Source: Candidatus Binataceae bacterium
GTDB lineage: Bacteria > Desulfobacterota > Binatia > Binatales > Binataceae
Length of the DNA stretch: 64,000 nucleotides
Assembly: GCA_036489375.1 (NCBI GenBank)
Contig: DASXFX010000054.1
Span: 210-64,209, forward strand
Reading direction: 5' to 3'
Within the stretch, counting starts at the first letter, position 1. Each line of letters opens with the position of its first letter. Below are positions 14,469-48,154 of this stretch, piece by piece. Both the position numbers and the translations under genes were made by a program. The notes under the pieces were generated by a model. The model was given only the letters and a program-made list of their open reading frames with translations. It had not been told where the DNA came from and searched no databases.

Positions 14469-14488
14469 CTTAGAAAGCGTTCGGAGAA

Positions 14489-16760: not shown

Positions 16761-16883
16761 ATTGTCCTCTAAGGTTGAGTTCCGAATCCGGTTACGAGTT
16801 TTACGAATGAATCCGGCTTTTGTCGCTTCCTATAAATCAACATCGCGTAAAAGCAAAATTTGACCGAGGGTTGGTATTGTTGC

Positions 16884-18233: not shown

Positions 18234-18240
18234 GACTGCG

Positions 18241-19938: not shown

Positions 19939-20560
19939 CGTCAAGCCCATAACCATGGAGGCGGCGGCCCACACGATCGCGCCCCCAGCGATACTCCATC
20001 CGTGGGGATTACCTTCGCGCGGACGTGTTGGAATGATTGCGCTGATAACGACGGAAACTGCATTTTTTACGATTTTCGTGACTGCCTACGTTTTCTACAT
20101 CGGTAAGAGCCTGACGCCGCCGTATCCGCGAGACGTACTATCCTATCCGGTGTTCAATACGATCTGCCTCCTGTCGTCGAGCATTACGATCGCGTTGGCC
20201 TCACGCGCACTGAACGCTGGAGCGATCCGCAGGTTCGCTGTTTTATGGATCATCACCCTGGCACTCGGGGTCGAATTTCTCATCGGAACCGGACTCGAAT
20301 GGCATCGGCTTATATACCACGTCGGACTGACTATACGGACCAATCTTTTCGGCACGACTTACTATTCGCTGGTGGGGCTGCACGCGGTGCATGTGACTAT
20401 CGGATCGCTTGCGATCGCGCTGGTGGCGATGCTCACGCTGGCGGGTGCGGTTACGCAAGAGCATGCCGAACGGATTGAAATGCTTTCGTGGTACTGGCAT
20501 TTCGTCGATGCGGTCTGGATCGTCGTGTTCCTGACCGTCTATGTGGTAGGCACGAGGTAG
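19931..20560 (+). CDS. ctaE: cytochrome c oxidase subunit III
   Basis: 209 aa with 5 TM helices and the C-terminal WYWHFVDAVWIVVF motif. It overlaps ctaD by 8 nt. Confidence 0.9.
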   Translation: MSNVKPITMEAAAHTIAPPAILHPWGLPSRGRVGMIALITTETAFFTIFVTAYVFYIGKSLTPPYPRDVLSYPVFNTICLLSSSITIALASRALNAGAIRRFAVLWIITLALGVEFLIGTGLEWHRLIYHVGLTIRTNLFGTTYYSLVGLHAVHVTIGSLAIALVAMLTLAGAVTQEHAERIEMLSWYWHFVDAVWIVVFLTVYVVGTR

Positions 20561-20561
20561 A

Positions 20562-21404
20562 TTGCGCGTGGCTGGAGCGCTCGATTCAGAAGGTTCACGC
20601 TCGAGCATCAAGGCTCCTGCGCCGACCGGGATGCCGCTCCTCGCCGCAGCGGGAATCACACTCGCGTTCACCGGGCTGGTCACGAGCTTGGTGGTGACTG
20701 TAATTGGCGTCGTGCTCGCGATCAGCGGCTTCGTTGGATGGTTTCGCGAAGTGTTGCCGCGCGAACATCGTGAAGCGATCGTCGTGGAAAAACCGCTAGA
20801 GGAAGCTCCGCTGGCGCATATACCGGTGGCGCATTTACGGGTTGGCGAGCAGGACCATCGCGCTCGCCTCCCGCTCGAAATTTACCCTTACTCGGCGGGG
20901 ATTAAAGGCGGGATCGCCGGCGGATTCGTGATGGCACTGCTGGCCATGGTGCACGGCGCCGTACTTCATGGGAGTCCCTGGTACACGATCAATCTGCTGG
21001 CGGCGGCGGCGATGCCAAGCCTGGCGAGCGCGAGCGCGGCGACCCTAGCGAGCTTCAACTTGCATGCGTTCATGGTCGCGGTACTGGTCCATGCGTTCGT
21101 CTCGCTTCTGGTCGGATTACTCTATGGAGTCTTGCTGCCAATGCTGCCGAGCTATCCCATATTGCTCGCTGGTATCGTCGCGCCATTGCTATGGACCGGG
21201 TTGCTTTGGTCGACCCTAAACGTGATCGATCCACTGCTTGATGCGCGGCTGGATTGGGGATGGTTCGTGCTGTGCCAGATTGCCTTCGGCATCACTGCGG
21301 GAATCGTGGTGGGGCGATCGGAGAAGATTCGTACTTTGCAGCACCTTTCGTTCGCCGTGCGTAGCGGAGTCGAGGGCGACCTGGACCCTGAGGAGAAAGC
21401 GTGA
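20562..21404 (+). CDS. polytopic membrane protein of unknown function embedded in the cox/qcr operon
   Basis: 280 aa with a TTG start 1 nt after the ctaE stop, about 6 hydrophobic helices, and a 4-nt overlap with the next gene. I recognise no family. Confidence 0.55.
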   Translation: MRVAGALDSEGSRSSIKAPAPTGMPLLAAAGITLAFTGLVTSLVVTVIGVVLAISGFVGWFREVLPREHREAIVVEKPLEEAPLAHIPVAHLRVGEQDHRARLPLEIYPYSAGIKGGIAGGFVMALLAMVHGAVLHGSPWYTINLLAAAAMPSLASASAATLASFNLHAFMVAVLVHAFVSLLVGLLYGVLLPMLPSYPILLAGIVAPLLWTGLLWSTLNVIDPLLDARLDWGWFVLCQIAFGITAGIVVGRSEKIRTLQHLSFAVRSGVEGDLDPEEKA

Positions 21405-22087
21405 AAGCGCAGCGGCTAGCCGGGTATGCCGCAGCCGCGTTGGCCTTGGCGATGATCCATGCGTGCGACCGATTACCCGGACGGCCGAGCGCGGCCGCCC
21501 GTCCACTCAATCCTAATCAGGTTACCGATTTCGCAACGCTTTACGGCGAGAACTGCGCGGGCTGTCATGGTTCAAACGGCAATTTCGGCGCTGCGCTGCC
21601 ACTCAACAATCCAACCTATCTTGCGATTGTTGACGATGAATCAATCTCCGACGCAATCTCCAAGGGGCTCGCAGGGACTTCGATGCCCGCATTTGCCGTG
21701 AGCGGCGGCGGCATGCTGACGGATGCGCAGATCAAAGGCATCGTGAGCGGAATGCGAGCGCACTGGGGGAACGAACAGAACGCATTCGGCGGCGCGCCGC
21801 CCTACGCCTCGGCAGAGACGGGCGATCAGGTTCAGGGCGCGAAAGTCTATGCTGACTACTGCGCCTCCTGCCACAGCGCCAACGGAATCGGTGGCGGAAA
21901 ATCGGGGGCGATTGCCGATCCGTCTTTTCTGGCGCTGTACAGTGATCAGTCGTTGCGAACATTGATCATTGCGGGACGCCCCGACCTCGGCCATCCGGGA
22001 TGGCGCGACTACTCGGGCAAAGCTCCTCTCGATTCGACCCAAGTGAACGACCTCGTCGCGTGGCTCTCGGCAAAACGTGGATCGTGA
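21401..22087 (+). CDS. diheme cytochrome c
   Basis: It carries two CxxCH motifs (CAGCH, CASCH) and an N-terminal signal or possible lipoprotein anchor (ALAMIHAC). Confidence 0.85.
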   Translation: MKAQRLAGYAAAALALAMIHACDRLPGRPSAAARPLNPNQVTDFATLYGENCAGCHGSNGNFGAALPLNNPTYLAIVDDESISDAISKGLAGTSMPAFAVSGGGMLTDAQIKGIVSGMRAHWGNEQNAFGGAPPYASAETGDQVQGAKVYADYCASCHSANGIGGGKSGAIADPSFLALYSDQSLRTLIIAGRPDLGHPGWRDYSGKAPLDSTQVNDLVAWLSAKRGS

Positions 22088-22652
22088 GTCGCAGGATAAG
22101 CATCAAAGGATGGCCATGATCGAAAGCTCCGAAACGGGAACCAACGACGCGAGCCGCACAGAGTCGAGCCGACGGGGTTTTCTGCTTCGTGCCGGTATTC
22201 TGCTCAACGCGCTCGCCGTCGCTGCGTTTGCGATTCCGATAGCGAGCTACCTGCTAGGACCATTGAGACGCAGCGTTTTCCTCAAATGGATTTCGCTGGG
22301 CCCCGTGGGCGCCTTTCCAGAAAATCAGACGCGGCTCGCCATATATACGAATCCGTTTCGTCAGCCATGGGATGGCACCACCGCCGAGATTCCGTGCTGG
22401 GTGAGACGACTCAACGGCAATACGTTTCAAGTGTTCGCGATCAATTGCTCACATCTAGGTTGTCCGGTGCGATGGTTTCCGGAGTCGGAGCTATTCATGT
22501 GCCCATGCCATGGCGGTACTTTTCACGCAGACGGCGAACGCGCGTCCGGACCGCCGCCGCGCAGCCTTTATCAATACCCATATAAGGTTGAGAGCGGCGA
22601 ATTGTGGGTCAAAGCTGGCGAGATGCCGGTGATGAGACTCCCCAAGGCTTGA
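22077..22652 (+). CDS. Rieske [2Fe-2S] subunit of a cytochrome bc-type complex
   Basis: It has the twin-arginine signal SRRGFLLRAG and the Rieske boxes CSHLGCP and CPCHGG. Confidence 0.9.
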   Translation: MDRESQDKHQRMAMIESSETGTNDASRTESSRRGFLLRAGILLNALAVAAFAIPIASYLLGPLRRSVFLKWISLGPVGAFPENQTRLAIYTNPFRQPWDGTTAEIPCWVRRLNGNTFQVFAINCSHLGCPVRWFPESELFMCPCHGGTFHADGERASGPPPRSLYQYPYKVESGELWVKAGEMPVMRLPKA

Positions 22653-22669
22653 GAGACCGCGAAAGCGCA

Positions 22670-24136
22670 GTGACAAAGTTGAAAGCAGTGCAGCGCGCGA
22701 TCATCGAATGGATGCGACTGCGCTTGAGCTCACCGCAGCCGCCGAATAACGCTCCCTATCGAGTACCGCGCAGCGCCGTGAGCTGGGGCTATGTCTTTGG
22801 CAGCGCGACATTCGTGGTCTTACTACTGGAGGTGGTGACCGGGCTATGTCTTGCGCTGGTCTATTCGCCGTCAGCCGACAACGCATGGCAAAGCCTGCTC
22901 TATCTCAATTATCAGCAACCGCTCGGATGGTATCTGCGAGCGCTGCATTACTGGGGTTCAAATTTTCTTCTTGCGCTGATGGTTATCCACCTGGTGCAAG
23001 TCTTTGTGCTTGGCGCATACAAGTACCCACGCGAACTTACCTGGATCGGTGGCGTCCTGTTGCTGTTGCTCACGCTCGCAATGGCGTTGACGGGCGAAGT
23101 TCTGCGCTTCGATCAAGAAGCCTACTGGGACCTGGCGATCGGATTCGCTTTGGCCGGCCGCACTCCCATTATTGGCGGCTACCTGGTGCATTTTCTAATG
23201 GGTGGGCCGATCATCGCAGGCGCAACACTTGCGCGTATGTTCACGATGCACGTACTACTCCTGCCTGCCGCGATCCTTGCACTGACCGGATTGCATCTGC
23301 TGTTGGTCTATCGGCTTGGCATTAGTGAATGGCCGATGCCCGGGCGGCTTGTACGACGCGAAACGTATCTCAGCAACTATCGCACGACACTCGACCGCGA
23401 AGGCGAGCCTTTGATTCCAAATGGCTTGCGCAAGGACCTGATCTTCGCTGCGCTCATCGTTCTCGGGCTCATCGTGACTGCGGCTGTTATGGGGCCAAAA
23501 GGCCCGAATGGAGCGCCGAATCCCTCAATCATTCAGACTCGCCCGCATCCTGATTTCTTCTTCCTGTGGATGGAAGCACTTATGGGATTGCTGCCAGCGT
23601 GGCTGGATACTCCCTTTGCGCTCATCGTACTACCGATACTGTTAATTGGCTTGTTCGCGCTACCTCTCATTTCTCCGACCGGCGAGCGTCACATTCTGCG
23701 ACGCCCGCTCTCGATGGTCATCGCCATCATCGTGTTTGCCGTCCTGATAACAACGACGTGGTTGGGTACTTACGATCCGTGGTCGCCAGATATGAATGCC
23801 TGGAGTGCCACACCTATCCCGATCGCTTACCTTAAGGGACGGACGGCACTCGAGTTACAGGGTGCTATTCTGATTCAGGCTAAGCAGTGCCGCAATTGCC
23901 ATTCGTTGGGTGGATCCGGTGGGATGCGCGGACCAGAGTTGGACACTACTGCGACTCGCCTGACGCGCAACGAGTTGATTCGGCAGATTCTGCAAGGCGG
24001 CGGCAATATGCCGGGCTATGGTAAGGCACTTAGGCCCGCCGAGGTGGATGCGATCGTCGCCTTTCTAATGACTATGCATCCCGCAAACGAACCCCCGGCG
24101 CGCAGCTCCGCACGGCCCGCGGAGACGGGCGGCTAA
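22670..24136 (+). CDS. cytochrome b (b6 + subunit IV fused) with C-terminal cytochrome c domain
   Basis: It has cytochrome b helices with His ligands (MVIHLVQ, TMHVLLLP) and a C-terminal CRNCH. I prefer the GTG start at 22670, after the Rieske stop; the ORF is open from 22604. Confidence 0.85.
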   Translation: MTKLKAVQRAIIEWMRLRLSSPQPPNNAPYRVPRSAVSWGYVFGSATFVVLLLEVVTGLCLALVYSPSADNAWQSLLYLNYQQPLGWYLRALHYWGSNFLLALMVIHLVQVFVLGAYKYPRELTWIGGVLLLLLTLAMALTGEVLRFDQEAYWDLAIGFALAGRTPIIGGYLVHFLMGGPIIAGATLARMFTMHVLLLPAAILALTGLHLLLVYRLGISEWPMPGRLVRRETYLSNYRTTLDREGEPLIPNGLRKDLIFAALIVLGLIVTAAVMGPKGPNGAPNPSIIQTRPHPDFFFLWMEALMGLLPAWLDTPFALIVLPILLIGLFALPLISPTGERHILRRPLSMVIAIIVFAVLITTTWLGTYDPWSPDMNAWSATPIPIAYLKGRTALELQGAILIQAKQCRNCHSLGGSGGMRGPELDTTATRLTRNELIRQILQGGGNMPGYGKALRPAEVDAIVAFLMTMHPANEPPARSSARPAETGG

Positions 24137-26258: not shown

Positions 26259-28544
26259 TCATGTCGATGGCAGTCGGTCGTCTGCCATGAAGTGATCGAG
26301 GACGTTTGCGGTGATGCGCGATACGTTGTTGTCGTAGTTGTTATGCGAGAGGCTGCCGCACCACGCAATTGAACCAGTCGAGAACACCGCTCCGCCACCT
26401 AGCGTCGGGAAGTACACGATATCGGCACGAACGCCTGGATCCTGCGTTCCCCCGGCCCCGGGGTAAGTGAATAGGATCTCTTCCACCACTCGCTGATAGC
26501 TATCGGAGTGCCCTTCGGACGTCGCAACCAATCTCGCATTGGCCGGCGTACCGAGTGACAGGTCATAGCGGTCCACTTCGTGCCCGGCCGCACCTCCTCC
26601 GACCAGGCCGAAATCGCCGATCAATTCATCGTCAGGAACGCCGTCAAAGATAAACCGAGTGTCGTGGTCACGGCTGTCGGGCATGCGCCGGTAGCTCGAA
26701 GAGTAGTCGAAGCCTTGTGCGGCGAAGCCAACCCCAACCAGCTTTTGCGGTGGTCGCGCGCGATTGCGCCAAACCCCACCACGCTCTCCCGTAGTACTAT
26801 GGTAATACTCACCTGGCCGCGCCTGCCAGGCGCGAGAGCCGCCTTCCCCTTTTCGAACCTCAATCAAGTGGGGCTTTCCAGGAAAATAGGAAGTCACCCA
26901 GTAAAAGCCATTGCCTCCAAGATACATCAGTCGGCCACCCGCAATCAGGAACGTTTCCAACGCATCGAGCATCGCTGACGAATAGTACTCAGGGTGCGTT
27001 CCAGTGATCACAACCTTGTAGCTATTTATTAACGTGGTTCCTTCGAGATGCAGGTCTTCGTCCGTGATCACGTCGTAGGCGTAAGCCTTCGCCTCCAGCC
27101 AACCGACGAGATCGAGATCGGCTGCGAAGCCCCATAGCGAGCCGGTCTCATGACGGTAGTTCGGCCGCATGTTCGGTATTGGTCGCAAGCGACTCGAGTA
27201 ACAAACGCCGCTGCCGTCGGAGTGCACGTCATAAGTGGACAGCGCTAGTTCCGGATGCTCGTATAGGTATAGATCCTGCTGCTGAACGACCGCCGTACGC
27301 CCTATGATTGCTTCAATGCCTGCGCCCACCCCCATATGCTCGTTGGCATAAGCCATATAGCTAGCGGTCGGTGCAAGAAAAGCGATCTTCGCGGTAGGCC
27401 GTGCAGTAACTGGTCGCACGAAGAACGGGATATAGTCGATCGCATCGCGAATACGTAACCGTGCCGCATAAGCACCAGAGCGCATCGAATCCGCGATCTC
27501 CAGTTCAAAGTCTGGCTTCCAGTCGGCGTCTTCAAGGTCGTCATCGTGAAAGTGAATCGCGCCATATTCCGCAGGGGCATGGATGAAATGCTCACTTCGG
27601 CCGGCCCAGGTATGACCGGTCATCCCCCGCGCCGGCATATTGATACAACGGCCGTTCAGGTTATTGCCCGAAGTATCGGTTACCTTGTCGCTTGCGATGC
27701 TTGATGAAGCGATCTCATTCGCGAAGTCCCATCGAGCTATAGGTCCTACGCCTCCCGCTTCTCTACCTGTAGCCAAGGCGTCAAATTCAGCCGCACCTAA
27801 TGCGCGAGCATAAACACAAGGCCGGTCAATCTTGCCATTGTAATGCCCATCGACGATCGTTGCCCCGGTGGCTGACGACCCCGAGGCCCACCCGGCGAAC
27901 ACCATTTGGGATTCCGCAGAAAACTTGATTTGTTGGGTGATAGTCTCGTGCGTGATCGGAGCGGGCAAGATCGCGACTGGTCCGACCAAAGAATTGACGG
28001 AGTTCACTAATGGCCGAAGGTCAATGATCGCGCGGCCAGTGGAACTATCGTAGCTTGTGCCCGCTGAATACCAGACGTTGTCCAGAAGCGGAGTCGGCGC
28101 CGCAACGCGCAGGGAATGACCGACACCGTCGCCAATCCATAGGGCCAGTTGCCTTTGCTCATCGATCACCATCGCCCAACCCATGCGCAACTCGGGATCC
28201 CATCGGGCGAGAATCCCTTGCGCTCCCTTGCCGGCTGTCGTCGGCATTATGAATGCGTGCAGCGTAATCGCTATACCAAGATTCAGCAGCTGGGCCGGAT
28301 CGTCGATCAGAACGTGGGAGCCGGCATATACCGGTTGGTATCTCGCAGGATATTCATTACTGATCGATGTCTCGATTAGCTCTTCTTTGGGTCCGGGGCC
28401 CTTCGGGTTAGTGTCACCACGGATCAGGCGAACGATATCCGCTCGATAGGACGTTCCGCCTTCCGCGCTAACCATGAAACGGATCCGTTGGCCGGAACTC
28501 ACACTAATGCGATCGCTGTACCCATGAATGGATTCGCTGGACAT
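26259..28544 (-). CDS. N,N-dimethylformamidase large (beta) subunit-family protein
   Basis: 761 aa. The N-terminal IHGYSDRISVSSGQRIRFMVS, the length and the C-terminal SIAWCGSL region resemble the DMFase large-subunit family. The call is from memory, not from an alignment. Confidence 0.65.
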   Translation of the reverse strand: MSSESIHGYSDRISVSSGQRIRFMVSAEGGTSYRADIVRLIRGDTNPKGPGPKEELIETSISNEYPARYQPVYAGSHVLIDDPAQLLNLGIAITLHAFIMPTTAGKGAQGILARWDPELRMGWAMVIDEQRQLALWIGDGVGHSLRVAAPTPLLDNVWYSAGTSYDSSTGRAIIDLRPLVNSVNSLVGPVAILPAPITHETITQQIKFSAESQMVFAGWASGSSATGATIVDGHYNGKIDRPCVYARALGAAEFDALATGREAGGVGPIARWDFANEIASSSIASDKVTDTSGNNLNGRCINMPARGMTGHTWAGRSEHFIHAPAEYGAIHFHDDDLEDADWKPDFELEIADSMRSGAYAARLRIRDAIDYIPFFVRPVTARPTAKIAFLAPTASYMAYANEHMGVGAGIEAIIGRTAVVQQQDLYLYEHPELALSTYDVHSDGSGVCYSSRLRPIPNMRPNYRHETGSLWGFAADLDLVGWLEAKAYAYDVITDEDLHLEGTTLINSYKVVITGTHPEYYSSAMLDALETFLIAGGRLMYLGGNGFYWVTSYFPGKPHLIEVRKGEGGSRAWQARPGEYYHSTTGERGGVWRNRARPPQKLVGVGFAAQGFDYSSSYRRMPDSRDHDTRFIFDGVPDDELIGDFGLVGGGAAGHEVDRYDLSLGTPANARLVATSEGHSDSYQRVVEEILFTYPGAGGTQDPGVRADIVYFPTLGGGAVFSTGSIAWCGSLSHNNYDNNVSRITANVLDHFMADDRLPST

Positions 28545-40902: not shown

Positions 40903-42717
40903 CTATTGATTATTGGCGCTGCGATTGTCGGCAACTTGCGCGTTGATCGCATAGGGCCCAGCGCCGAAGGTAGGCAGGATAACCCATTTCAGGCCGGAAG
41001 TATCGACGCCCCCTTGCGAGGTTCCGCTTGAATTATGTTCGAGCCTCGCGCTGCTAATCATGCGCGCCTGCATACCGAGCAAATGCGCCGACTTTATCGC
41101 ATCGCCGAGACTGACGAAGTGCATCGGCAAGGGCAGCCTGTCACCCCAATCGACGTAGCCGTAAGAGAAGAAATCACCGTCAGTCTGACCGGGATTATTG
41201 GGCGCATTTGGCGTGATCATAATCGCCTGCTGCTTCAAGGCGGAATAAAAGCTCAGCTTCACCATGATAAGGCCGGCACTGGTCTGGACGTAAAATGGAT
41301 ATGGATTGACGGGTGTTTGTTGCTGCAACTCGACATCAATCTCGATCAGTTGCGCATCAGGCGACCATTGTTGCGCGCGGACGAGTGCCTTTTGCGCCAT
41401 CGTTTCCAGATCGGGCAAAGGCCAGGAGTCTTTCAAGGGTGCGATCTCGCCTGAATGCGCGGCCGTAATCGATGCGTACGGGTTGGCAGGATTGTAGTTG
41501 GCTAACGGATTCGAACCCTGAGGGGACGGCTGCGATGCCGGCGCGCTGCTTTGCGCTGAAGGTTGATTGGGAGTGGGGGCGGAATTGCTATGAAACATGA
41601 GGAAACCGACCAGAAATGCGATCACGATCACGCCGGCACCGATCGCGGGTATCGCCCAAGAGGGCAACGACCTTAAAAATTCGGCCAGACCGGGTCCTGG
41701 ATCCGGTTGTGGCGGTGGAGGAGGAGGCACGGGCTGGCCGCCTTGGGGAAGGCCAATCGCGGCCTGAAAGTCCTGGATGGTCGGATAGCGCTGCGCGGCT
41801 TTGACGGCGAGCGACGTCATCAGAGCCTGCTCGGCGGCGTGGGGAATATCGGCGCCAACCGCACTCGGCAACTGAATTGTGTCTTCGGCGAGGCGATCGA
41901 TCGATGGCGGCGGAATCGAGCCGGTGAGGAGATGATAGAAGGTTGCGCCGACTGCATAGACGTCGGTCCAGGGTCCCTGCTTGCCCGTGCTGCGATATTG
42001 CTCTTCCGGTGCGTAGCCGACTTTAAGGATCACCGAAAGACGCTGGCTGCGATCGCGCAAGGCCTGGCGTGCCGCGCCGAAGTCGAGCAGCTTAACCAAC
42101 CCCGAGGTCGTGACATAAATGTTGTCGGGGCTGATGTCCCGATGGAGGACGTTGACCCGATGCACCTCGCGCAGCGCGTCCATCACCGGCGTCATGATGC
42201 CGAGGGCCTCATCGAAGGCGAGACGGCCGCCGCGATCTTTCAAGTGATCTTTGAGGGTGGTGCCCTCAAGATATTCCATCACGAGGTAGGCGGTGCCGTG
42301 CGCGGGAAAGAAATTGGTGACCGAGATAATTCCGGGATGGCCTTCGAACTGCGCGACCATCCGCGCTTCATCGAGGAAGCGCTCGAGGCCGTAGTTGAAG
42401 TCGTCCTTTGACGGTCCGCTGTGCGGCACGACCTCACTGGTATCAACTGAGCGGCTGGCCATTCCGCTCGGCATGTATTCCTTGATCGCGATGCGGCGGG
42501 CGAGGCGGATATCCCAAGCGAGGTAGGTGATCGCGAAGCCGCCTGCGCCAAGCGCGCGGCCGACGATATATTGATCGTTGAGCACCGAGCGCGGTGGCAG
42601 TTGGAACGGCACCGAAGGCGGTCCATTCTCGTCGAAGCCGCAAGTGGGGCAGATCGCAGCGCCACCGCGATCGATCATGCAGCCCATGCAAAGGCGCGCG
42701 GTTTCGTCTGGGGGCAT
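40903..42717 (-). CDS. Hanks-type Ser/Thr protein kinase with N-terminal zinc ribbon, one TM helix and a roughly 230-aa extracytoplasmic domain of unknown fold
   Basis: It has CMGC...CPTC, GAGGFAITY, IAIKEY, HRDISPDN, DFGAA and GYAPEE, with the TM helix IPAIGAGVIVIAFLVGFLMF. The start at MPPDE (42717) lies 1 nt after the PP2C stop; the ORF is open to 42792. Confidence 0.9.
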   Translation of the reverse strand: MPPDETARLCMGCMIDRGGAAICPTCGFDENGPPSVPFQLPPRSVLNDQYIVGRALGAGGFAITYLAWDIRLARRIAIKEYMPSGMASRSVDTSEVVPHSGPSKDDFNYGLERFLDEARMVAQFEGHPGIISVTNFFPAHGTAYLVMEYLEGTTLKDHLKDRGGRLAFDEALGIMTPVMDALREVHRVNVLHRDISPDNIYVTTSGLVKLLDFGAARQALRDRSQRLSVILKVGYAPEEQYRSTGKQGPWTDVYAVGATFYHLLTGSIPPPSIDRLAEDTIQLPSAVGADIPHAAEQALMTSLAVKAAQRYPTIQDFQAAIGLPQGGQPVPPPPPPQPDPGPGLAEFLRSLPSWAIPAIGAGVIVIAFLVGFLMFHSNSAPTPNQPSAQSSAPASQPSPQGSNPLANYNPANPYASITAAHSGEIAPLKDSWPLPDLETMAQKALVRAQQWSPDAQLIEIDVELQQQTPVNPYPFYVQTSAGLIMVKLSFYSALKQQAIMITPNAPNNPGQTDGDFFSYGYVDWGDRLPLPMHFVSLGDAIKSAHLLGMQARMISSARLEHNSSGTSQGGVDTSGLKWVILPTFGAGPYAINAQVADNRSANNQ

Positions 42718-42718
42718 C

Positions 42719-43528
42719 CTATTTCGATTCCTGATTCGTAATCCTGATGCAGAGGACAGTAACGTTATCCTGATGCGGAAGTTCGCGTGCAAGTGCGCTC
42801 GCAGTCAGCGTGTCGGCGGTTTCCTGCGCATCGGCGGCGCTGGTCGCGATGCGCGCGATCTCCTCGTGGCTGAGCGCGCGATAGAGGCCGTCACTGCAAA
42901 GAATGACGGTATCGCCAGCAGTTACGGCAACGCCTTCGCTCGGCGAATCGATCTGGGCGATGCCGCCGGCGCCGACGTAACTCGTAAGCGCATCGCGATC
43001 GGGATCGATCGCCGCATCCTCCGGCGACATGACGCCGCGCTTCACCAACTCGGCGAGCTTCGCGCCCAGCGTATGCGGATGATTAAGCTGGGTCAGGGCG
43101 CCGTCACGGCAGAGATAAAGCGCACTGTCGCCTACTGACATCCAGTACAAACCCGATGGTGCGAAGGCCGCCGCCACCAGCGTCGAGCCGACGTCGCGCG
43201 CCAGATCGACCGCCGTAGCAAACTCGAATACGGAACGATCGGCAGCTTCGACTGCACGGCCCAAGGCCTGCGTGATCGGTTCGCCAATCTGTTTGGTCGC
43301 GTAATGCTGAAGAAAGGCGCGCACCGCGAGCTGGCTCGCTTCGGCGCCGTGGGCCATCCCGCCCATGCCATCGGCGACGATCGCCAGCATCCCGCCGTGC
43401 GCCATAAGGCCGGCGTCGTTGGGATCGGAGAACCCGAACGAGTCCTGCTGATCCTCGCGCTTGCCTACGTCCTGGGCATTGCCGGGCGCGTAAACCAGCC
43501 CGTCAGTCCCAATGAAATGTGTCGTCAC
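42719..43528 (-). CDS. PP2C-family Ser/Thr phosphatase
   Basis: 269 aa, with GKREDQQDSF, VADGMGGMAHG and LCSDGL motifs. Confidence 0.9.
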   Translation of the reverse strand: MTTHFIGTDGLVYAPGNAQDVGKREDQQDSFGFSDPNDAGLMAHGGMLAIVADGMGGMAHGAEASQLAVRAFLQHYATKQIGEPITQALGRAVEAADRSVFEFATAVDLARDVGSTLVAAAFAPSGLYWMSVGDSALYLCRDGALTQLNHPHTLGAKLAELVKRGVMSPEDAAIDPDRDALTSYVGAGGIAQIDSPSEGVAVTAGDTVILCSDGLYRALSHEEIARIATSAADAQETADTLTASALARELPHQDNVTVLCIRITNQESK

Positions 43529-44081
43529 AAAGGGGCCAGAACATCAGCTTGCTTTTGCCGACTTCGACGATATCTCGCGAGGTCAGTTTCATCGGCGTGT
43601 TGACCATCTGCTCGTTGAGATACACCAGACCCGCCGCTTCGCCCGGCAGTATCCAGAAAACGCGATGCTTCGGATCGTAGGCGACTGATGCGTGCTTGTC
43701 ACGTGACACGCTCTCATCGCCGGTGAGCGCAATATCCATCGCAGGACTGCGGCCGATGAAATTCTTCTCGCCGTGGATCCTGAAGTCGCGACCCTTGTCC
43801 GGGCCCTCGACGCACACCAGCCAGCCGACGACGGGACTTATGCCCGACGAAGTATCGCGATAGACCGCGCGCGTTACGCCAGGGTCGGCCGAGGCTATTG
43901 GCGCTGCTGGTGGAGGAGCCGCGGGAGCCGCTGCGACCGGCGCCGGCGCGGGCGCGCTTGCGTGATCGGGTACGCGTCGCGTTTTTCCTTCGACGACATC
44001 GGCGCCCACCCCGCAATAGGGACACGACGTATGCTTGGCGGCGTCGTAGAAGTGACCGTGACTGCATCGCATCATCGCCAT
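43503..44081 (-). CDS. zinc-ribbon + FHA domain protein
   Basis: The N-terminal CSHGH...CPYCG is followed by a Pro/Ala linker and an FHA core (IGRSPAMDIALTGDESVSRDKHASV...NEQMV). It overlaps the PP2C start by 26 nt. Confidence 0.85.
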   Translation of the reverse strand: MAMMRCSHGHFYDAAKHTSCPYCGVGADVVEGKTRRVPDHASAPAPAPVAAAPAAPPPAAPIASADPGVTRAVYRDTSSGISPVVGWLVCVEGPDKGRDFRIHGEKNFIGRSPAMDIALTGDESVSRDKHASVAYDPKHRVFWILPGEAAGLVYLNEQMVNTPMKLTSRDIVEVGKSKLMFWPLCDDTFHWD

Positions 44082-44094
44082 CGTAAAATCACCC

Positions 44095-44679
44095 TCAATC
44101 GAAAAGGCTGGCGGCGTAATCGCCGGTTCCGACGTTGAAATCGAATTGAACGTCCTGGCTTTGCTGGATGACGAGATTTTTCGAACGCGGCTGGGCGTTC
44201 ACCGTCGAAAGTGAAATCGTGCAGGCACCCGGTTTGGTCAGGTTCGCACTGGCCTCGAAGTGGTACGGCCCCGGATGAATGGCGAAGAGGTAGATGCCGT
44301 AGGAACTGCCGTCAGGCTGCGCATCCGTGGAACGATAGCCAACGGACGGCGCGCCGGACGGCTGGATCGCCGACTTGAGCACAAAGGTGGCACAGGGTAG
44401 ATTCTGGTCGTTACTCCCACCGATCGACAGCAGTGCAAAGGGCGGCATCTGATTTCCCGACGCCTTCTCGGCGGCGATCTGCGCCTTGAGACTCTCGTTC
44501 TTGGACTTGAGGTCGGCGGTTTCGGCGTTGCCGCTCGAACTCGCCGCCGACGCGTTCTGCGCCTTGAAGTAGTATGGGAACAACGCAAGCGTCAGGAAAC
44601 AGAACGCGCCGAGCGCGCCCGTCAGCAAGTCGAGCACCGACATGTTGAAGATGCTGACCTCGCGATTGCGCGGCTTCAT
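44095..44679 (-). CDS. TolR/ExbD-like single-pass membrane protein, paralog 2, with a non-canonical periplasmic domain
   Basis: MKPRNREVSIFNMSVLDLLTGALGAFCFLTLALF has the basic N-terminus, TM helix and membrane-embedded Asp17 positioned as in TolR D23 and ExbD D25. A coiled-coil-like segment and a beta-rich domain follow. Confidence 0.55.
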   Translation of the reverse strand: MKPRNREVSIFNMSVLDLLTGALGAFCFLTLALFPYYFKAQNASAASSSGNAETADLKSKNESLKAQIAAEKASGNQMPPFALLSIGGSNDQNLPCATFVLKSAIQPSGAPSVGYRSTDAQPDGSSYGIYLFAIHPGPYHFEASANLTKPGACTISLSTVNAQPRSKNLVIQQSQDVQFDFNVGTGDYAASLFD

Positions 44680-44738
44680 CGTGCGCTCCGCTCAATTCGT
44701 AGGTACGCTTTCACTTGATAGTTCATAGCCGGGCCTGA

Positions 44739-45335
44739 TCAATTCTTAAAAACCTGTGCAAATTGCAGATCGGCAGCTTGCACGTCGAAATTCAGATTGT
44801 ACGACGTGAGTGCGGTCCCACTGAGGTCCTGACTCACCTGTTGAGTACCGCTCGCACCGTACTCAAACACATAGATGGTGCAGGGCAGGCTCTGTGCATG
44901 GGCGGTTAGCGAAAGATTGTAGGTGCCGGGCGCCAGCAGGAACATGTTCAGGTTCAGGTCGTAGCCGTTTTGAACGTAGTTAGGCAGCATCTTGACCGCC
45001 GCTTCACCCCCTGGGCCACTCGCGCTTGCGACCTGGAAGGCACCGCAAACCGTATTCTGCGGGTTCGACATCGTCACAAACGCCATCGCAAACGGCGGCA
45101 TCCCGTTCTGGTTCGCTTTGGCGCTGGCCAGCTCGCTCTCGAGTTTGACATGGACTTCTTTCAGGGCTTGGGCTGCCTTTGCTTCCGCAGCCTTATCCGC
45201 AGCGGAGCCGCCGACAACCTTGAAGTAGGAAGGGAATAACGCGAGGGTCAGGAAACAAAACGCCCCAAGTGCCCCCGTCAACAGGTCGAGCACCGACATG
45301 TTGAAGATATTGACCTCGCGATTGCGCGGCTTCAC
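44739..45335 (-). CDS. TolR/ExbD-like single-pass membrane protein, paralog 1
   Basis: The GTG start at 45335 overlaps the stop of the MotA/ExbB-like gene (GTGA). VKPRNREVNIFNMSVLDLLTGALGAFCFLTLALF is nearly identical to paralog 2. The longer ORF that runs to 45602 is rejected. Confidence 0.55.
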   Translation of the reverse strand: MKPRNREVNIFNMSVLDLLTGALGAFCFLTLALFPSYFKVVGGSAADKAAEAKAAQALKEVHVKLESELASAKANQNGMPPFAMAFVTMSNPQNTVCGAFQVASASGPGGEAAVKMLPNYVQNGYDLNLNMFLLAPGTYNLSLTAHAQSLPCTIYVFEYGASGTQQVSQDLSGTALTSYNLNFDVQAADLQFAQVFKN

Positions 45336-46201
45336 CGGGGTCCCTCGTACAGCCGATTGATCAGGTTGCGTAGCGTGTAAGTGCCCGCGAGATTGATCGC
45401 CGTCTCTTCCTTCTCCTGCGCGAGATACAGCACAAAGACCAGGATTGCGCTCTCCATCAGCGCGACCATCGTACAGTTGAAGCCGAGCGACAGGGCCTGC
45501 GCGATTTCGTAAATGGAGATGTTGCCGTTCTCCGGCACCAGCGCGAGCGACCCGCCCAGGCCGACCACGGTGCCGATAAATCCCACGGTCGGAATCAGCC
45601 ACGCGATGTAGCGGATCAGCCCATAGCGCAGATCGACGCGATGCTCGATCAACTCCAGGCTTGAATTCATCACCCCGACGACCTGCTCGACCGAACGGCC
45701 CGACTGGAATTGCAGGATGGACACGTCGATCAGGTACGGCAGGAATCCATGCTCGCGGCCAAACATGTGCGCAACGCGACGGCGGATTGGGGCGAGGTCA
45801 GCTTGCTGCAGCACGGTTTCCTGATCCTCGGGCAGCAGATGCATTTCGGCAAACGCGTGTTCGCTAAGCGCGGATCGCCAACGCACCCACAGTTCGCCCA
45901 GCCCGATGAAAAACAGGATGTGCTCGAGATTCTGGATCGTGAAGGGATAGGGAAAATGCGAATACTTGCTGTGATCGGTCAGAATCTCGGCGCCGTGGCT
46001 GTCTTTCGGAAAGATGATCGTAAGCGCGATGATGAACAAGACTGCCGCGCCGAGCGAGAGCAGCATCACCGTCCGCCGATCGGGCGTCGTCGAGAGTTGC
46101 TCAATCAGTCCGCTTCCGTGCGCTGCAGTAGGGGTTCGCTGTTCGATTGGGGCCTTCGGCGGAGCGGGAGGTACCGGCGCTGCCTGCGATGGTTGACTCA
46201 T
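45332..46201 (-). CDS. MotA/TolQ/ExbB-family proton channel protein
   Basis: 289 aa with TolQ-like topology: TM1 at res about 45-65, a cytoplasmic loop of about 130 aa, then IPTVGFIGTVVGLGG and IAQALSLGFNCTMVALMESAILVFVLYL, which resemble the MotA_ExbB signature. Confidence 0.7.
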   Translation of the reverse strand: MSQPSQAAPVPPAPPKAPIEQRTPTAAHGSGLIEQLSTTPDRRTVMLLSLGAAVLFIIALTIIFPKDSHGAEILTDHSKYSHFPYPFTIQNLEHILFFIGLGELWVRWRSALSEHAFAEMHLLPEDQETVLQQADLAPIRRRVAHMFGREHGFLPYLIDVSILQFQSGRSVEQVVGVMNSSLELIEHRVDLRYGLIRYIAWLIPTVGFIGTVVGLGGSLALVPENGNISIYEIAQALSLGFNCTMVALMESAILVFVLYLAQEKEETAINLAGTYTLRNLINRLYEGPR

Positions 46202-46228
46202 CTAACGTAACTCCCTCCTCGGCTTGCT

Positions 46229-46759
46229 TCATTCACCGCATACCGGGCAGCGCTGCCCGCGTGTTTTGATCGCTCCGCAATCACATCGTATCAATGCCGA
46301 TTTACCGCTGGACGCCTTCTGCGGGGGCGGCGGTCGTACAACTCCCTGCGCGGGTACTGGTGTGGGCGTCACTGCCGGAGATGGCGCCACTGCTGGAGAT
46401 GGCGCGAGGACCTGCGCCGGGGCAGAAGCGGGCGGCGCAACCGAACTCGACAACGCCTCGAAGACATCTCGCGCGGCCAGCGTCACTTCGCCGAAGCGCA
46501 GAGTGTCGGTGAGAAATATCGTTTCCTCGCCGAGTTTGAACTCGCGCCCCTGGCGCAGCAGCACGGTGCCGTTCTGGCTGCCGAGATCACGCACCAGCAT
46601 TCGATCGTTACCCAGCATCAGAATCTCGGCATGAACCCGGCTGACCGAATCGTCTGCGATAGGGATGTCGCAGGTCGTGGCGCGTCCCAAGGTGAATTTA
46701 CGTGAGCTCATAAGGCGGACTTCGCTTCGCCCCTCGAGAATACCGTGGAGTTCCCGCAT
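46229..46759 (-). CDS. FHA domain protein with C-terminal zinc ribbon
   Basis: The FHA core is FTLGRATTCDIPIADDSVSRVHAEI...GSQNGT. A Pro-rich linker follows, and the C-terminus is CDCG...CPVCGE. Confidence 0.85.
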   Translation of the reverse strand: MRELHGILEGRSEVRLMSSRKFTLGRATTCDIPIADDSVSRVHAEILMLGNDRMLVRDLGSQNGTVLLRQGREFKLGEETIFLTDTLRFGEVTLAARDVFEALSSSVAPPASAPAQVLAPSPAVAPSPAVTPTPVPAQGVVRPPPPQKASSGKSALIRCDCGAIKTRGQRCPVCGE

Positions 46760-47224
46760 CTACCCGCCTGACGGAGCGCAACCAGGCAGTTTGACGCGCA
46801 CATCGGCATCTCGCTCGCCCTGCGGGCGCAAGATGCTGCCAGACGCCGTTGCGCGCCAGTATAGCGACCCGTTGCTGTCTATTCCAATACGTGAGCTAAC
46901 GATATTAGCCAGACTGCCAATTGGCGATTGATCGTGTAGCTCTGCGAGCCATTTCGGGCAGCCGGATCGTCAGCGGCAGTCGCACCGGATATCGAGTCGC
47001 TGCAAACCATTCGATACACCGGCGAAAGATCGTCGATACTCGTCGCCAACTCAACTTGGCGGCTAACGGCAAAACTCCTTGCAAATTCGACTTCTGTCGA
47101 GGGCATACACATTGCTGGTTAGCGCTTCGCAAGACACTACTTCCGGAGTCGGCAACTATAACGGGCGGCAAAGCGCCGACTTCGAGGGTCACAGATTGCG
47201 CATTACAGAGAAGGGGAGAAAATC

Positions 47225-48154
47225 ATGGCCGATGACACAGACTCAACCGTGGATACGACAACCACCGGATCGACCGATTCGAGCGATCAGACGACCACCG
47301 ACTCCACCACGACCAACGCAAGCGACCCGACGTCGGCGGACGCGTCATCGCAAGGCTCAGGAACGCCAGCGGCGAGCGCAAACGACCCGGGTCAACCTTA
47401 TCTCTTCGTTGATCTTTACTCCGGAGACGACGGCCGACTGGTCGGGAAGCATCCAAACTGGCCGGTTCTCGCGAGCACCAGCGGCTATTTCGGAGCGATC
47501 CTGAAGGCCTGGGACGGCACGCAATTCAACGATGGAGGCTGGTTCCAGCGAAACTGGCCCGCGGTCCGTGGCGCGGGCGGTGATCGTTATGGCGACGCGT
47601 GGTTTCGCGGCGCTTACCTGTTCCTAGAATTTCTGCAGAGCGGAGCGGACCAGGCGGATGCATATTTGAAGGCGGTGGACGCGGCTGGCGGCTGGGACCG
47701 CGGCGACATCCTGCCGATCATCGACGTGGAGCAAGGGGGCGAGGGCAAGCCGGCCGCCAACGGCAAGCCGGCGGTAGCGCCTCATCCGAATCGCTCCGCG
47801 AGCAAACAGCAAGTGATCGATTGCGCGACGGCGTGCGCCAACCGAATCCGGGAATGCACCGGTCGCCGCGTGATCCTGTACGGGCGCGGAGCGATGCGCG
47901 ATCTCAGCATCAACGATCGCATGGGATGCGACCTCGTGTGGAATCCCGCATACACCGCGACGATGGTGATGCACGGCCTCGAAGCTTGGAACCTGGAGGA
48001 CGTCGTGCTGTGGCAATACTGCGGCGACGGGACGGCGGCGGTCGCCAAGCTGCCGCGTTCGGTGCCCGGATTCGGCACGTGCGACTTGAGTGTATTCGTG
48101 AAAGGCGCGCAAGCCCCGACCTTGCAAATGGTTCGCGACAACCTGCTGTCGTAG
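47225..48154 (+). CDS. GH25-family muramidase (lysozyme) with Thr/Ser/Asp-rich N-terminal tail and no signal peptide
   Basis: GH25-like motifs appear in order: FVDLYSG, RGAYLFLEF, ILPIIDVEQGG, VLWQYCGDG, CDLSVF. The N-terminal 57 aa are low complexity (about 17 Thr). A GAAGGGGAG RBS precedes the ATG. Confidence 0.75.
   Translation: MADDTDSTVDTTTTGSTDSSDQTTTDSTTTNASDPTSADASSQGSGTPAASANDPGQPYLFVDLYSGDDGRLVGKHPNWPVLASTSGYFGAILKAWDGTQFNDGGWFQRNWPAVRGAGGDRYGDAWFRGAYLFLEFLQSGADQADAYLKAVDAAGGWDRGDILPIIDVEQGGEGKPAANGKPAVAPHPNRSASKQQVIDCATACANRIRECTGRRVILYGRGAMRDLSINDRMGCDLVWNPAYTATMVMHGLEAWNLEDVVLWQYCGDGTAAVAKLPRSVPGFGTCDLSVFVKGAQAPTLQMVRDNLLS

Follow-up and report, generated by a model that had tools for sequence, protein, structure and literature searches.

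A TolQ/ExbB-like channel encoded with FHA, PP2C and Hanks-kinase genes: a candidate motor under phosphorylation control in Binataceae and other bacteria

The 64,000-nucleotide stretch of Candidatus Binataceae DNA analyzed here (the window) carries a cassette of seven genes, in which a putative ion-driven motor with subunits A and B is encoded together with two FHA proteins, a PP2C-type phosphatase and a Hanks-type kinase (Table 1). We favor, with a probability of roughly 55%, the reading that the cassette encodes a self-contained new 5:2 motor of the TolQR/ExbBD class, whose cytoplasmic face would be controlled by FHA adaptors under the kinase/phosphatase pair. The gene set is found in at least five bacterial phyla, and the cassette thus appears to represent a type of ion-driven motor, coupled to protein phosphorylation, that has not been studied before. 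We found no description of such a motor-signalling cassette in the literature. An earlier note on this DNA likewise knew of no stator-like motor encoded within an FHA/phosphatase/kinase cassette. This agrees with the literature as to the kinase/phosphatase link, which is unprecedented, but the link between FHA proteins and a motor is not wholly so, because AglRQS of Myxococcus has cytoplasmic FHA and Zn-ribbon partners, GltG and GltJ.

Table 1. Features of the motor-signalling cassette in the window
Feature	Position	Strand	Description
Weak sigma-70-like promoter match	46858..46887	-	9/12 matches; ~100 nt upstream of FHA1 start
FHA1-ZnR	46229..46759	-	N-terminal FHA, Pro/Ala-rich linker, C-terminal Zn ribbon CDCGAIKTRGQRCPVCG; soluble
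A subunit, 289 aa	45332..46201	-	MotA/TolQ/ExbB-family channel; three strong hydrophobic helices (hydropathy)
B1	44739..45335	-	Single-pass; TolR/ExbD-like N-terminal helix with invariant Asp17; GTG start overlaps A stop
B2	44095..44679	-	B1 paralog, about 41-43% identity; first ~38 residues nearly identical
ZnR-FHA2	43503..44081	-	N-terminal Zn ribbon RCSHGHFYDAAKHTSCPYCG, Pro/Ala linker, GarA/OdhI-like FHA; soluble
PP2C-type Ser/Thr phosphatase	42719..43528	-	PF13672 E=7.5e-17 (Pfam)
ZnR-Hanks kinase	40903..42717	-	PF00069 E=2e-30 (Pfam); N-terminal Zn ribbon CMGCMIDRGGAAICPTCG

The ORF list of the window places all seven genes on the minus strand in the order FHA1-ZnR, A, B1, B2, ZnR-FHA2, PP2C and ZnR-Hanks kinase (5' to 3'), at the coordinates and with the tight junctions that had been claimed for them. 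The overlap of the A stop and the B1 start (GTGA, 45332-45335) and the PP2C/kinase junction (TAG-g-ATG at 42717-42721, with the kinase ATG 1 nt past the PP2C stop) were read directly from the sequence, and the overlap of 26 nt between FHA2 and PP2C was taken from the ORF coordinates. The same types of junction recur in the other Binataceae loci, where the 4-nt A/B overlap, an FHA2/PP2C overlap of 23-26 nt and the 1-nt PP2C/kinase gap are all kept. Because these overlaps are conserved, the seven genes fit a single operon, as the earlier note had read them. The sigma-70-like match in Table 1 is the sole promoter candidate in the divergent intergenic region of 465 nt; the number of such sites in this region is not above that in shuffles, so the match is a pointer only.

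We then surveyed the loci of 80 non-redundant species-level genomes from Binataceae, Acidobacteriota, Verrucomicrobiota, "Bdellovibrionales" and one Gammaproteobacteria MAG. The gene for the Asp-helix protein B adjoins A in 77 of them, and the signalling genes are present in many: the kinase in 52 loci, FHA2 in 50, PP2C in 49 and FHA1, directly upstream of A, also in 49. Such recurrence in non-redundant genomes of several phyla puts the arrangement far beyond chance. The same families were also found in a distant branch comprising SAR86, Parabeggiatoa, Alphaproteobacteria and Rhizobium leguminosarum BT01, and synteny across phyla, on which the earlier note had made its proposal depend, is thus borne out. 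In both deep branches A has FHA genes beside it, also at loci from which B and the kinase have relocated, and the FHA1-A spacing ranges in both from a 4-nt overlap to a gap of ~30 nt. In many Verrucomicrobia, A-B and a Zn-ribbon protein are kept but no FHA, PP2C or kinase gene adjoins them, so phospho-control is not obligatory for the motor. The neighbours of the cassette are unrelated housekeeping genes, which differ between genomes, and flagellar stator genes are never among them. Clustering of ORFs over the 80 loci, combined with Pfam searches of recurrent neighbour clusters and annotated neighbourhoods, found no TonB, TolA, Pal, OmpA-like, Glt, Tss or stator-client gene near the cassette, and neither TolB nor a TonB-dependent receptor was present in the neighbourhoods examined. 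The cassette therefore stands outside Tol-Pal, TonB, gliding and T6SS loci, as had been supposed.

The A subunit, proposed before as a MotA/ExbB member, has a significant Pfam match to PF01618 (MotA_ExbB; 38.8 bits against a cut-off of 22.9). Its AF2 model (pLDDT 84.6) agrees with this and is predicted to have a TolQ/ExbB-like fold, the top Foldseek matches being TolQ and ExbB with a probability of 1.00 and TM of 0.55-0.66 normalised to the target. Against the NCBIfam equivalog models of TolQ, ExbB, MotA and PomA, A scores 12-15 bits where the cut-offs are 135-341 bits, and these models rule it out as an AglR or TolQ orthologue. The pore motifs GFIGT and CT(M) are conserved. In the conservation profile the cytoplasmic domain and C-tail reach 0.58-0.62 against 0.29 in the periplasmic loop, and the C-terminal helix is highly conserved together with the cytoplasmic domain. 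The last two helices hold Thr-containing motifs conserved throughout the alignments, with T211 and T244 invariant in those of the close branch; the alignments show no Thr that is invariant in both branches, and the substrate may thus be something other than the motor itself.

The two B proteins had been described as TolR/ExbD-like paralogs, and this description holds in part. Their resemblance to TolR/ExbD is confined to the N-terminal ~40 residues including Asp17, where the helix aligns with the motif EINIxPLLDVL in an alignment of E. coli TolR and ExbD with B proteins of other phyla. However, neither B1 nor B2 matches ExbD/TolR, MotB or any other Pfam or NCBIfam model, and the fold differs, so they were rejected as members of the ExbD/TolR family. 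A comparison of the B family with E. coli TolR by hhalign gave no support either, and homology to the known axle proteins thus rests on the short motif and gene position. The AF2 model of B1 predicts helices at 12-40 and 47-74 and then a periplasmic beta-sandwich at 83-190 with pLDDT >90, a coiled-coil-like helical stalk linking the N-terminal Asp helix to the sandwich; a structure search with it gave no significant PDB match. The periplasmic domain varies by lineage, and vWA, beta-helix or Sel1 domains are found elsewhere in place of the beta-sandwich. Two B genes are present in all 11 Binataceae loci and a single one in the others, the second B gene being restricted to Binataceae.

Among the signalling proteins, FHA1 matches PF00498 at E=1e-12 as well as FHA domains in the PDB, retains the phospho-Thr-binding motifs GR, SxxH and NG, and has no hydrophobic segment by hydropathy. 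FHA2 matches the same family at E about 1e-6 (1.4e-6), with GarA/OdhI as top PDB matches, and its NG loop lacks the canonical Asn. Its linker contains the conserved Thr-x-x-Val motifs T34 and T70, and most members in both branches have a Thr with V, I or L at +3, 15-35 residues before the FHA2 domain. The Zn ribbons noted earlier on FHA1, FHA2 and the kinase are present and belong to three distinct types, each of them conserved: C[ED]CGAIKxxGxxCPxC in the FHA1 orthologues at A, CMGCMxxRGxxxxCPxC in the co-oriented kinases of the cassette, and the FHA2 type in the gene that follows B in every phylum. In Verrucomicrobia this last ribbon stands at the N-terminus of a TM-anchored beta-helix protein, which indicates that A-B is constantly paired with the ribbon and not with the FHA domain; the ribbons are likely docking modules of the signalling proteins. 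In the distant branch, Cys-less peptides occupy the positions of the FHA terminal ribbons. The PP2C scores 148.7 bits against the NCBIfam Stp1/IreP model, under the equivalog cut-off of 230, and shows by eye the metal-binding motifs DGMGG, SDG and DN. The kinase contains HRD, DFG and APE motifs followed by a Pro-rich linker, one transmembrane helix at 356-374 (hydropathy) and an extracytoplasmic domain of ~230 aa, for which we found no detectable relatives and no PDB sequence match; in other lineages this position is taken by FGE-sulfatase or PDZ domains. Both enzymes have retained their catalytic motifs, as read from the translations and in agreement with the HMM matches.

Modules of an FHA protein, a PP2C and a Hanks kinase that are attached to envelope machines are represented by Fha1-PppA-PpkA of the H1-T6SS, FhaA/FhaB-PstP-PknA/B and GarA/OdhI. 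The triad of reader, eraser and writer is the same here: the cassette PP2C is Stp1/PstP-like, and GarA/OdhI are nearest to FHA2, whose conserved upstream Thr resembles their self-inhibitory motif. In contrast to these modules, the partner would be an ion-driven motor rather than a secretion sheath, a cell-wall synthase or a metabolic enzyme, and the two FHA proteins and the kinase all bear dedicated Zn ribbons. On the motor side, TolQ-TolR-TolA and ExbB-ExbD-TonB provide the best structural matches of A and share its three strong hydrophobic helices, the Thr-containing pore helices and an Asp axle helix with an EINI..LLD-like motif, and the third gene of Verrucomicrobia, coding for a ZnR-TM-periplasmic-domain protein, has a TolA/TonB-like topology. 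The cassette differs from them in the coiled coil and beta-sandwich that replace the ExbD/TolR periplasmic domain, in the low equivalog scores of A, in the tie of its genes to FHA, PP2C and kinase genes, and in the lack of their client genes from the neighbourhoods examined. The closest precedent is the Agl-Glt system of Myxococcus, in which a TolQ-like AglR5 pentamer surrounds two differing TolR-like Asp helices, AglQ and AglS. GltG is predicted to place its FHA domain against the cytoplasmic side of the AglR pentamer (PMC11761067). The two helices correspond to B1 and B2, and FHA and Zn-ribbon partners are common to both systems. However, GltG and GltJ are anchored in the membrane and carry terminal TonB-C domains that reach an outer-membrane complex, whereas the FHA/ZnR proteins here are soluble with no TonB-C or Glt gene nearby, and the Agl-Glt components named in PMC11761067 include no kinase/PP2C pair dedicated to the system.

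In the reading we prefer, an A pentamer would surround a dimer of B helices, possibly a B1/B2 heterodimer in Binataceae like AglQ/AglS, and the buried invariant Asp of B would carry the ion. B would form a coiled-coil periplasmic stalk ending in a lineage-variable binding-type domain, which would engage a periplasmic target. FHA1-ZnR and ZnR-FHA2 would be soluble adaptors that contact and serve the conserved face of A, docking probably via their terminal Zn ribbons. The single-pass kinase would sense an extracytoplasmic cue by its C-terminal ectodomain and write phospho-Thr marks, most plausibly on the TxxV/I motif of the FHA2 linker, in which case FHA2 would be a GarA/OdhI-like intramolecular switch; the kinase itself or loops of A are other possible sites. 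PP2C would remove the marks and the FHA domains would read them, setting the motor engaged or idle. Control would run from the signalling proteins to the motor, which would be gated by Thr phosphorylation, as the earlier note had hypothesized.

The flow could also be the reverse, which we regard as rather unlikely: A-B would sense the envelope or proton-motive force, the variable periplasmic domain of B binding a cue so that the channel opens or rotates, and FHA, kinase and PP2C would be the downstream output, in the way that ZorAB passes an envelope signal to cytoplasmic effectors. A variable periplasmic domain of B and a conserved cytoplasmic face of A do make a pattern of variable input and constant output, and larger cassettes fuse FHA to trypsin-like proteases and vWA domains resembling effectors. 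However, with its transmembrane helix and ectodomain the kinase already provides the system with a dedicated sensor. Zorya ZorAB is a non-flagellar MotAB-like 5:2 complex coupling the envelope to cytoplasmic proteins, as A-B would be, but the cassette has no long ZorA-like cytoplasmic tail, no peptidoglycan-binding ZorB domain and no ZorC/D/E; its PADLOC match to ZorA is insignificant (13 bits), and its context is one of housekeeping genes with high cross-phylum conservation.

It is less probable still that the cassette is a conflict or stress system, in which the A-B channel would dissipate the membrane potential and lead to dormancy or abortive infection, FHA holding it closed and the kinase detecting an invader or damage as the trigger. 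Proteins of the vWA-FHA and trypsin-FHA types are found in related cassettes, one of which has a diversity-generating retroelement beside kinases with FGE-sulfatase ectodomains; bacterial conflict systems commonly show such themes (PMC7159879). The kinase domain also scores well against defence-kinase models, e.g. PD-T4-6 and Mad6, though these are generic Hanks-kinase matches. On the other hand, no PADLOC system model matches the cassette, its neighbours are not defence genes, and we found no phage copy and a single plasmid copy, on a chromid. Moreover, A keeps 55-65% identity between phyla and its identity drops with taxonomic distance, highest within Binataceae and followed by Acidobacteriota and Verrucomicrobiota, which suggests mostly vertical inheritance, unlike that of defence islands.

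That the motor is an accessory of a Tol-Pal, TonB, Agl-Glt, T6SS or flagellar machine encoded elsewhere, with the signalling genes a generic regulator adjacent by chance, is very improbable: FHA1 weakly matches GltG and TagH (NCBIfam) and one alphaproteobacterial locus lies inside a flagellar export gene cluster, but the equivalog scores of A and the lack of client genes nearby speak against it, and chance juxtaposition would not account for the FHA genes that stay by A across the two deep branches.

All seven open reading frames claimed in the earlier note are present on the minus strand, and five of them were identified by Pfam and NCBIfam. The gene A, which had been taken for a MotA/TolQ/ExbB-like channel, does encode a MotA/ExbB member, as its product matched PF01618 over residues 166-259 with E=9e-10 and a score above the cut-off; the precomputed PF01618 annotation was also found on the A homologues listed. 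The tight junctions described earlier are real as well: the A stop and the start of B1 have a GTGA in common at 45332-45335, FHA2 and PP2C overlap by 26 nt, and one base lies between the TAG of PP2C and the ATG of the kinase gene. Since the three junction types were found again in other Binataceae loci, they are operon features and not artefacts of ORF calling. Promoter and terminator scans gave sites no better than those in shuffles, and no family was matched in an Rfam search of the whole window. The cassette probably belongs with the TolQR-type 5:2 motors, as a variant that has a phospho-signalling set built in.

Coordinates of the cassette genes, other window genes and individual loci in other genomes or records
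Feature	Sequence	Coordinates	Strand	Assignment or content
FHA1	window	46229-46759	-	FHA PF00498, E=1e-12 (Pfam)
A	window	45332-46201	-	MotA_ExbB PF01618, 38.8 bits vs 22.9 cut-off
B1	window	44739-45335	-	Asp-helix partner of A
B2	window	44095-44679	-	Asp-helix partner of A, paralog of B1
FHA2	window	43503-44081	-	FHA PF00498, E=1.4e-6 (Pfam)
PP2C	window	42719-43528	-	PP2C_2 PF13672, E=7.5e-17
Kinase	window	40903-42717	-	Pkinase, E=2e-30
GH25 lysozyme-like ORF	window	47225-48154	+	Pfam E=1e-7; Thr/Ser/Asp-rich N-terminus; divergent from operon
Patatin-like protein	window	6529-10254	-	1241 aa; unrelated to cassette
N,N-dimethylformamidase-like protein	window	26259-28544	-	unrelated to cassette
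Cytochrome oxidase/cytochrome b gene cluster	window	17121-24136	+	unrelated to cassette
B-beta-helix fusion	L073, Chthoniobacter MAG	10826-13507		893 aa
B with Sel1 repeats and following gene	L029, gammaproteobacterial MAG	10903-14293
Diversity-generating retroelement	L091, 10.3-Mb metagenome contig	12399-13839		bAvd + reverse transcriptase
Distant cassette	L090, alphaproteobacterial MAG	1-16798
Distant cassette	L092, pRlBT01d, NZ_CP125637.1	153360-174064
Site in a near-identical contig	L088, ENA contig	12674-13559

The A protein has 289 residues, all identical to those of a protein that NCBI lists under Candidatus Binataceae, the lineage from whose metagenome-assembled genome the window comes. 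It is strongly hydrophobic at 45-63, 199-217 and 243-261. When its AlphaFold2 model (53 homologues, mean pLDDT 84.6) was compared with solved structures by Foldseek, the predicted fold came closest to TolQ (9avi, 8vlw), ExbB (5sv0), TolAQR (9ddm) and TonB-ExbBD complexes, these top matches having a probability of 1.00 and TM scores of 0.55-0.66 normalised to the target, and the model ranked MotA, PomA and ZorA below TolQ and ExbB. TolQ, ExbB and MotA carry conserved polar (Thr) residues in both pore-lining C-terminal helices. In A, the last two helices contain T211 (GFIGT) and T244 (CTM), which are invariant in alignments of the close branch (Binataceae, Acidobacteriota, Verrucomicrobiota and others), and the two motifs stay conserved over 117 sequences of both this and the distant branch. 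Over these 117 sequences, the mean column identity is 0.58-0.62 in the cytoplasmic parts versus 0.29 in the periplasmic loop. Because it scored 12-15 bits against NCBIfam equivalog cut-offs of 135-341, A is not orthologous to any characterised motor (TolQ, 12.7 vs 221; ExbB, 13.8 vs 135; MotA, 12.4 vs 340; PomA, 14.6 vs 341).

The TolR/ExbD-like label previously given to B1 and B2 holds for their N-terminal Asp helix, but neither the HMM evidence nor the periplasmic fold places them in the ExbD/TolR family. As in ExbD and TolR, the N-terminal helix of B has a conserved Asp after a basic or polar tail. The first ~40 residues of B1/B2, MKPRNREVNIFNMSVLDLLTGALGAFCFLTLALFP, align with the TolR/ExbD motif EINIxPLLDVL at Asp17, and the stretch RNREINIFNMSLLD aligns with SEINIVPLLD of E. 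coli TolR and HDINVTPFID of E. coli ExbD, the Asp being invariant in that alignment. Both paralogs possess Asp17, and this residue is nearly invariant in 25 B proteins from several phyla. The ExbD HMM (PF02472) did not match B1 or B2 at E<=1, and ExbD was not among the 25 Pfam families most often matched by the 25 B proteins at E<=10. The AlphaFold2 model of B predicts a membrane helix, a long second helix forming a helical stalk, and an all-beta sandwich with pLDDT >90. For this modelled sandwich Foldseek returned nothing from the PDB at E<=0.001. Its matches included neither TolR nor ExbD, and the marginal ones of the periplasmic domain were to DUF4425 or generic beta-sandwiches only; Pfam at relaxed thresholds found just coiled-coil noise in this domain. 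Since the B family and E. coli TolR could not be linked statistically with hhalign, and the ExbD and MotB_plug models were unmatched, B is not filed as ExbD/TolR, whose periplasmic domain is alpha/beta instead of all-beta. We also rejected a MotB/ZorB-type stator anchor, which would bring an OmpA-like peptidoglycan-binding domain or a MotB plug: neither OmpA nor MotB_plug had a Pfam match in B1, B2 or the 25 relatives. By gene position and Asp helix, B is an axle-type partner outside the ExbD/TolR and MotB families. Its full-length relatives are almost confined to Binataceae, and the N-terminal helix alone is spread wider. In TolQR, ExbBD and MotAB, five A subunits rotate round two B helices as ions pass a buried Asp, and A and B retain the motifs that such rotation requires.

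FHA1 has all of the phospho-Thr-binding GR, SRVH and NG, while FHA2 keeps GR and SR..H and has the Asn of NG replaced (AG here, SG in the consensus). The closest relatives of FHA2 are GarA/OdhI, and in most members of both branches a Thr with V/I/L at +3 lies 15-35 residues ahead of the FHA domain; this likeness and the conserved upstream Thr suggest that FHA2 may be a GarA-like self-binding switch. Hydropathy and Pfam revealed no hydrophobic segment and no TonB-C match in FHA1 or FHA2. PP2C scored 62 bits against a Pfam cut-off of 24 and shows DGMGG, SDG and QDN in its translation, and it was rejected as an Stp1/IreP orthologue (equivalog 148.7 vs 230 cut-off). The kinase (PF00069, 106.6 bits vs 31.7 cut-off) has the motifs IAIKEY, HRDISPDN, DFG and YAPEE conserved in 41 orthologues, followed in its architecture by one membrane helix and a ~230-residue ectodomain, for which Pfam and PDB sequence searches found no relative. 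Related cassette kinases have FGE-sulfatase or PDZ at the ectodomain position. Because of this helix and ectodomain, and of the domains found there elsewhere, the kinase would be the obvious sensor of the system.

We then considered conservation. A scan of one genome per GTDB species confirmed 102 loci, and we kept 80 of these; the 80 non-redundant loci analysed comprise scan loci plus L001, L003 and L005, which replaced their duplicates. ORFs were called in all of them, followed by iterative search with the seven window proteins and all-against-all clustering. The loci come from Binataceae, from MAGs labelled Bdellovibrionales, from one Gammaproteobacteria MAG, from Acidobacteriota (Bryobacteraceae, Terriglobia, Solibacter, Vicinamibacterales and the cultured Paludibaculum fermentans) and from Verrucomicrobiota (Chthoniobacterales, Udaeobacter), so that the gene set recurs across several phyla. 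A is present in all 80 loci and B adjoins it in 77; the other families are the kinase (52 loci), FHA2 with its Zn ribbon (50), FHA1 with its Zn ribbon (49), PP2C (49) and a trypsin-FHA fusion (25). The order is always FHA1-A-B-B-FHA2-PP2C-kinase in Binataceae and typically FHA1-A-B-FHA2-PP2C-(vWA-FHA)-(trypsin-FHA)-PP2C-kinase(-kinase) in Acidobacteriota; many Verrucomicrobiota have A-B and a third gene only. Downstream of FHA2 in L003/L057 and other Acidobacteriota there are a cytoplasmic trypsin-like protease-FHA, a vWA-FHA, a long PP2C and a second kinase. These extra proteins, absent from the window, may be effectors or additional adaptors.

Three types of Zn ribbon occur across the loci, each conserved in its own protein. 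First, the C-terminus of FHA1 carries C[ED]CGAIKxxGxxCPxC. Second, the protein after B (FHA2 here) begins with CxxGH[FY]YDxxKHxxCP[WY]C. Third, the co-oriented kinase has CMGCMxxRGxxxxCPxC at its N-terminus. The FHA1 and FHA2 of the distant branch have, where these ribbons would be, the peptides GPVxRNPxTGEII and YRGPDGKII, which contain no Cys. As the cytoplasmic parts of A are far more conserved than its periplasmic loop, we infer from these sequences that the signalling proteins probably attach, by their terminal ribbon or ribbon-like modules, to the side of the A pentamer that faces the cytoplasm. The large proteins encoded by the third gene in Verrucomicrobiota were rejected as FHA proteins, their match being confined to the first ~55 residues and Pfam giving beta-helix. 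Those residues form a Zn ribbon (RIRCSCGRVYDPxKHxxCPxCG) that is homologous to the N-terminal part of FHA2 in the window, MMRCSHGHFYDAAKHTSCPYCG; behind it come a membrane helix and then, in the periplasm, a right-handed beta-helix. The periplasmic part of the system has been exchanged from lineage to lineage. Two single loci are worth recording: B itself is fused to a right-handed beta-helix in L073, and in L029 B bears Sel1 repeats and the gene after it encodes two Zn ribbons, a TM helix and Sel1 repeats.

A full-library search with the A family returned 112 clusters (50% identity) at E<=1e-30 and 397 at E<=1e-10. Relatives 30-45% identical to the window protein are found in SAR86, Candidatus Parabeggiatoa and an alphaproteobacterial MAG, on two contigs of 6.3 Mb and 10.3 Mb, and on the 1.33-Mb chromid of Rhizobium leguminosarum BT01. 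These distant loci have FHA1 directly upstream of A, together with FHA2, PP2C, kinase and a B with the same N-terminal helix, whose C-terminal domain is often vWA or beta-rich. No feature is more stable across the family than the adjacency of A and FHA, which is kept even where B sometimes lies elsewhere in the cluster. The L090 cassette reads kinase, vWA-FHA, FHA, A, FHA, PP2C, vWA, PP2C, trypsin-FHA and is inserted in a flagellar export cluster (FliO/P/Q/R, FlhB, FliE, CsrA), the sole such case in ~90 loci. L092, from the cultured and genetically tractable R. leguminosarum BT01, has PP2C-FHA-A-B, then a secreted 180-aa protein, a 1610-aa protein without Pfam match and an FHA protein, as well as a divergent kinase-PDZ/FHA/PP2C set. 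Inside the distant cassette version of L091, the retroelement is flanked by two Ser/Thr kinases with FGE-sulfatase ectodomains, and the kinase sensor domain there may be hypervariable.

In the reading we prefer, to which we give a probability of roughly 0.55, phospho-Thr marks would be set by the kinase and PP2C and read by FHA adaptors docked on A; this reading of the marks would decide whether the motor is engaged, with the stalk and terminal domain of B as periplasmic output or anchor. The observation in the earlier note stands on all three points fixed beforehand, because A has its MotA/ExbB match, the synteny recurs and no Tol-Pal, TonB, gliding or T6SS locus holds the cassette in the neighbourhoods examined. 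The opposite direction, in which the signal runs from the motor to the kinase set, seems to us unlikely. We consider it improbable that the cassette is a conflict or stress system whose effector, the channel, depolarises the membrane. This idea is kept alive by the diversity-generating retroelement beside kinases in one distant locus, but PADLOC gives no system, with generic kinase/PP2C matches and an insignificant ZorA only; no phage copy was found in the search, a single one of 72,556 plasmid records matched (the chromid L092), the gene context is housekeeping, and conservation across phyla is very high. It is hardly credible that the motor serves as accessory to some known machine whose genes lie elsewhere; the neighbours are housekeeping genes and no Tol-Pal, TonB, gliding or T6SS embedding was seen at the examined loci.

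Of the systems described so far, the Myxococcus Agl-Glt gliding motor comes closest (PMC11761067): its TolQ-like pentamer is paired with two TolR-like helices that differ from each other, GltJ brings a Zn ribbon and GltG several FHA domains on the cytoplasmic side, and one of these FHA domains is predicted to rest on the pentamer. The two B paralogs here recall the AglQ/AglS heterodimer of Myxococcus. However, GltG and GltJ are membrane-anchored TonB-C proteins in a large glt cluster, whereas FHA1 and FHA2 have neither feature, and no dedicated kinase/PP2C pair is among the components given in PMC11761067; for these reasons the cassette lies outside Agl-Glt. FHA1 was rejected as GltG (equivalog 31.5 vs 650 cut-off), and no Glt-like family was seen among the conserved cassette neighbours. 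Zorya was discarded as well, the PADLOC ZorA match (13.3 bits, E=0.008) being insignificant and no other Zor protein being found, and so was the T6SS Fha-PpkA-PppA set (TagH 29.9 bits vs 120), with no Tss genes in the window or the examined neighbourhoods. The claim of novelty must thus be narrowed: the cassette is undescribed in the literature searched, but a TolQR-type motor decorated with FHA and Zn ribbon already exists in Myxococcus. Full-text search for a motor with FHA, PP2C, kinase and Zn ribbon, in a corpus covering subscription journals thinly, gave no description, and targeted term searches in two recent surveys of MotAB/ExbBD/TolQR diversity turned up no passage tying motors to FHA/kinase signalling.

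To our knowledge, the jobs of 5:2 ion motors are few (flagellar rotation, TonB uptake, Tol-Pal division, gliding/T9SS and Zorya defence), and each newly found one has opened a field. The chances are about even that the cassette represents a functional class of 5:2 ion-driven rotary motors not recognised before. Their cytoplasmic face would dock FHA adaptors via Zn-ribbon or ribbon-like peptides, their conservation would extend from Binatota, Acidobacteriota and Verrucomicrobiota into several classes of proteobacteria, and they would probably drive or sense a periplasmic process. If so, the class would stand beside flagellar stators, Ton, Tol, Agl, GldLM and Zorya, as the first in which an ion motor is coupled directly to phospho-Thr signalling by Hanks kinase and PP2C, and it would give bacterial Ser/Thr signalling a new kind of target. 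The motor family is widespread in abundant, little-studied soil phyla, with an unusually conserved channel subunit. Its own set of writer, eraser and reader offers an experimental handle on switching the motor on and off, the three Zn-ribbon types are testable docking modules, and P. fermentans and R. leguminosarum BT01 are cultured hosts.

All-against-all clustering of the 80 loci found no further conserved family beside the cassette beyond lineage-level synteny, with which the recurrent neighbour clusters tested, all housekeeping enzymes, are consistent. The genes flanking it in the window (GH25, LTXXQ, hydrolase, GFA, bestrophin) are near the cassette in no other locus, Binataceae included, and the remaining window genes are metabolic and respiratory. 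Finally, the L088 contig is 99.5% identical with three indels across the operon, and in its public gene calls PP2C is broken up, giving an antisense ORF and a fragment of 141 aa; as the window copy of PP2C is intact, these indels are probably an assembly error in that record.
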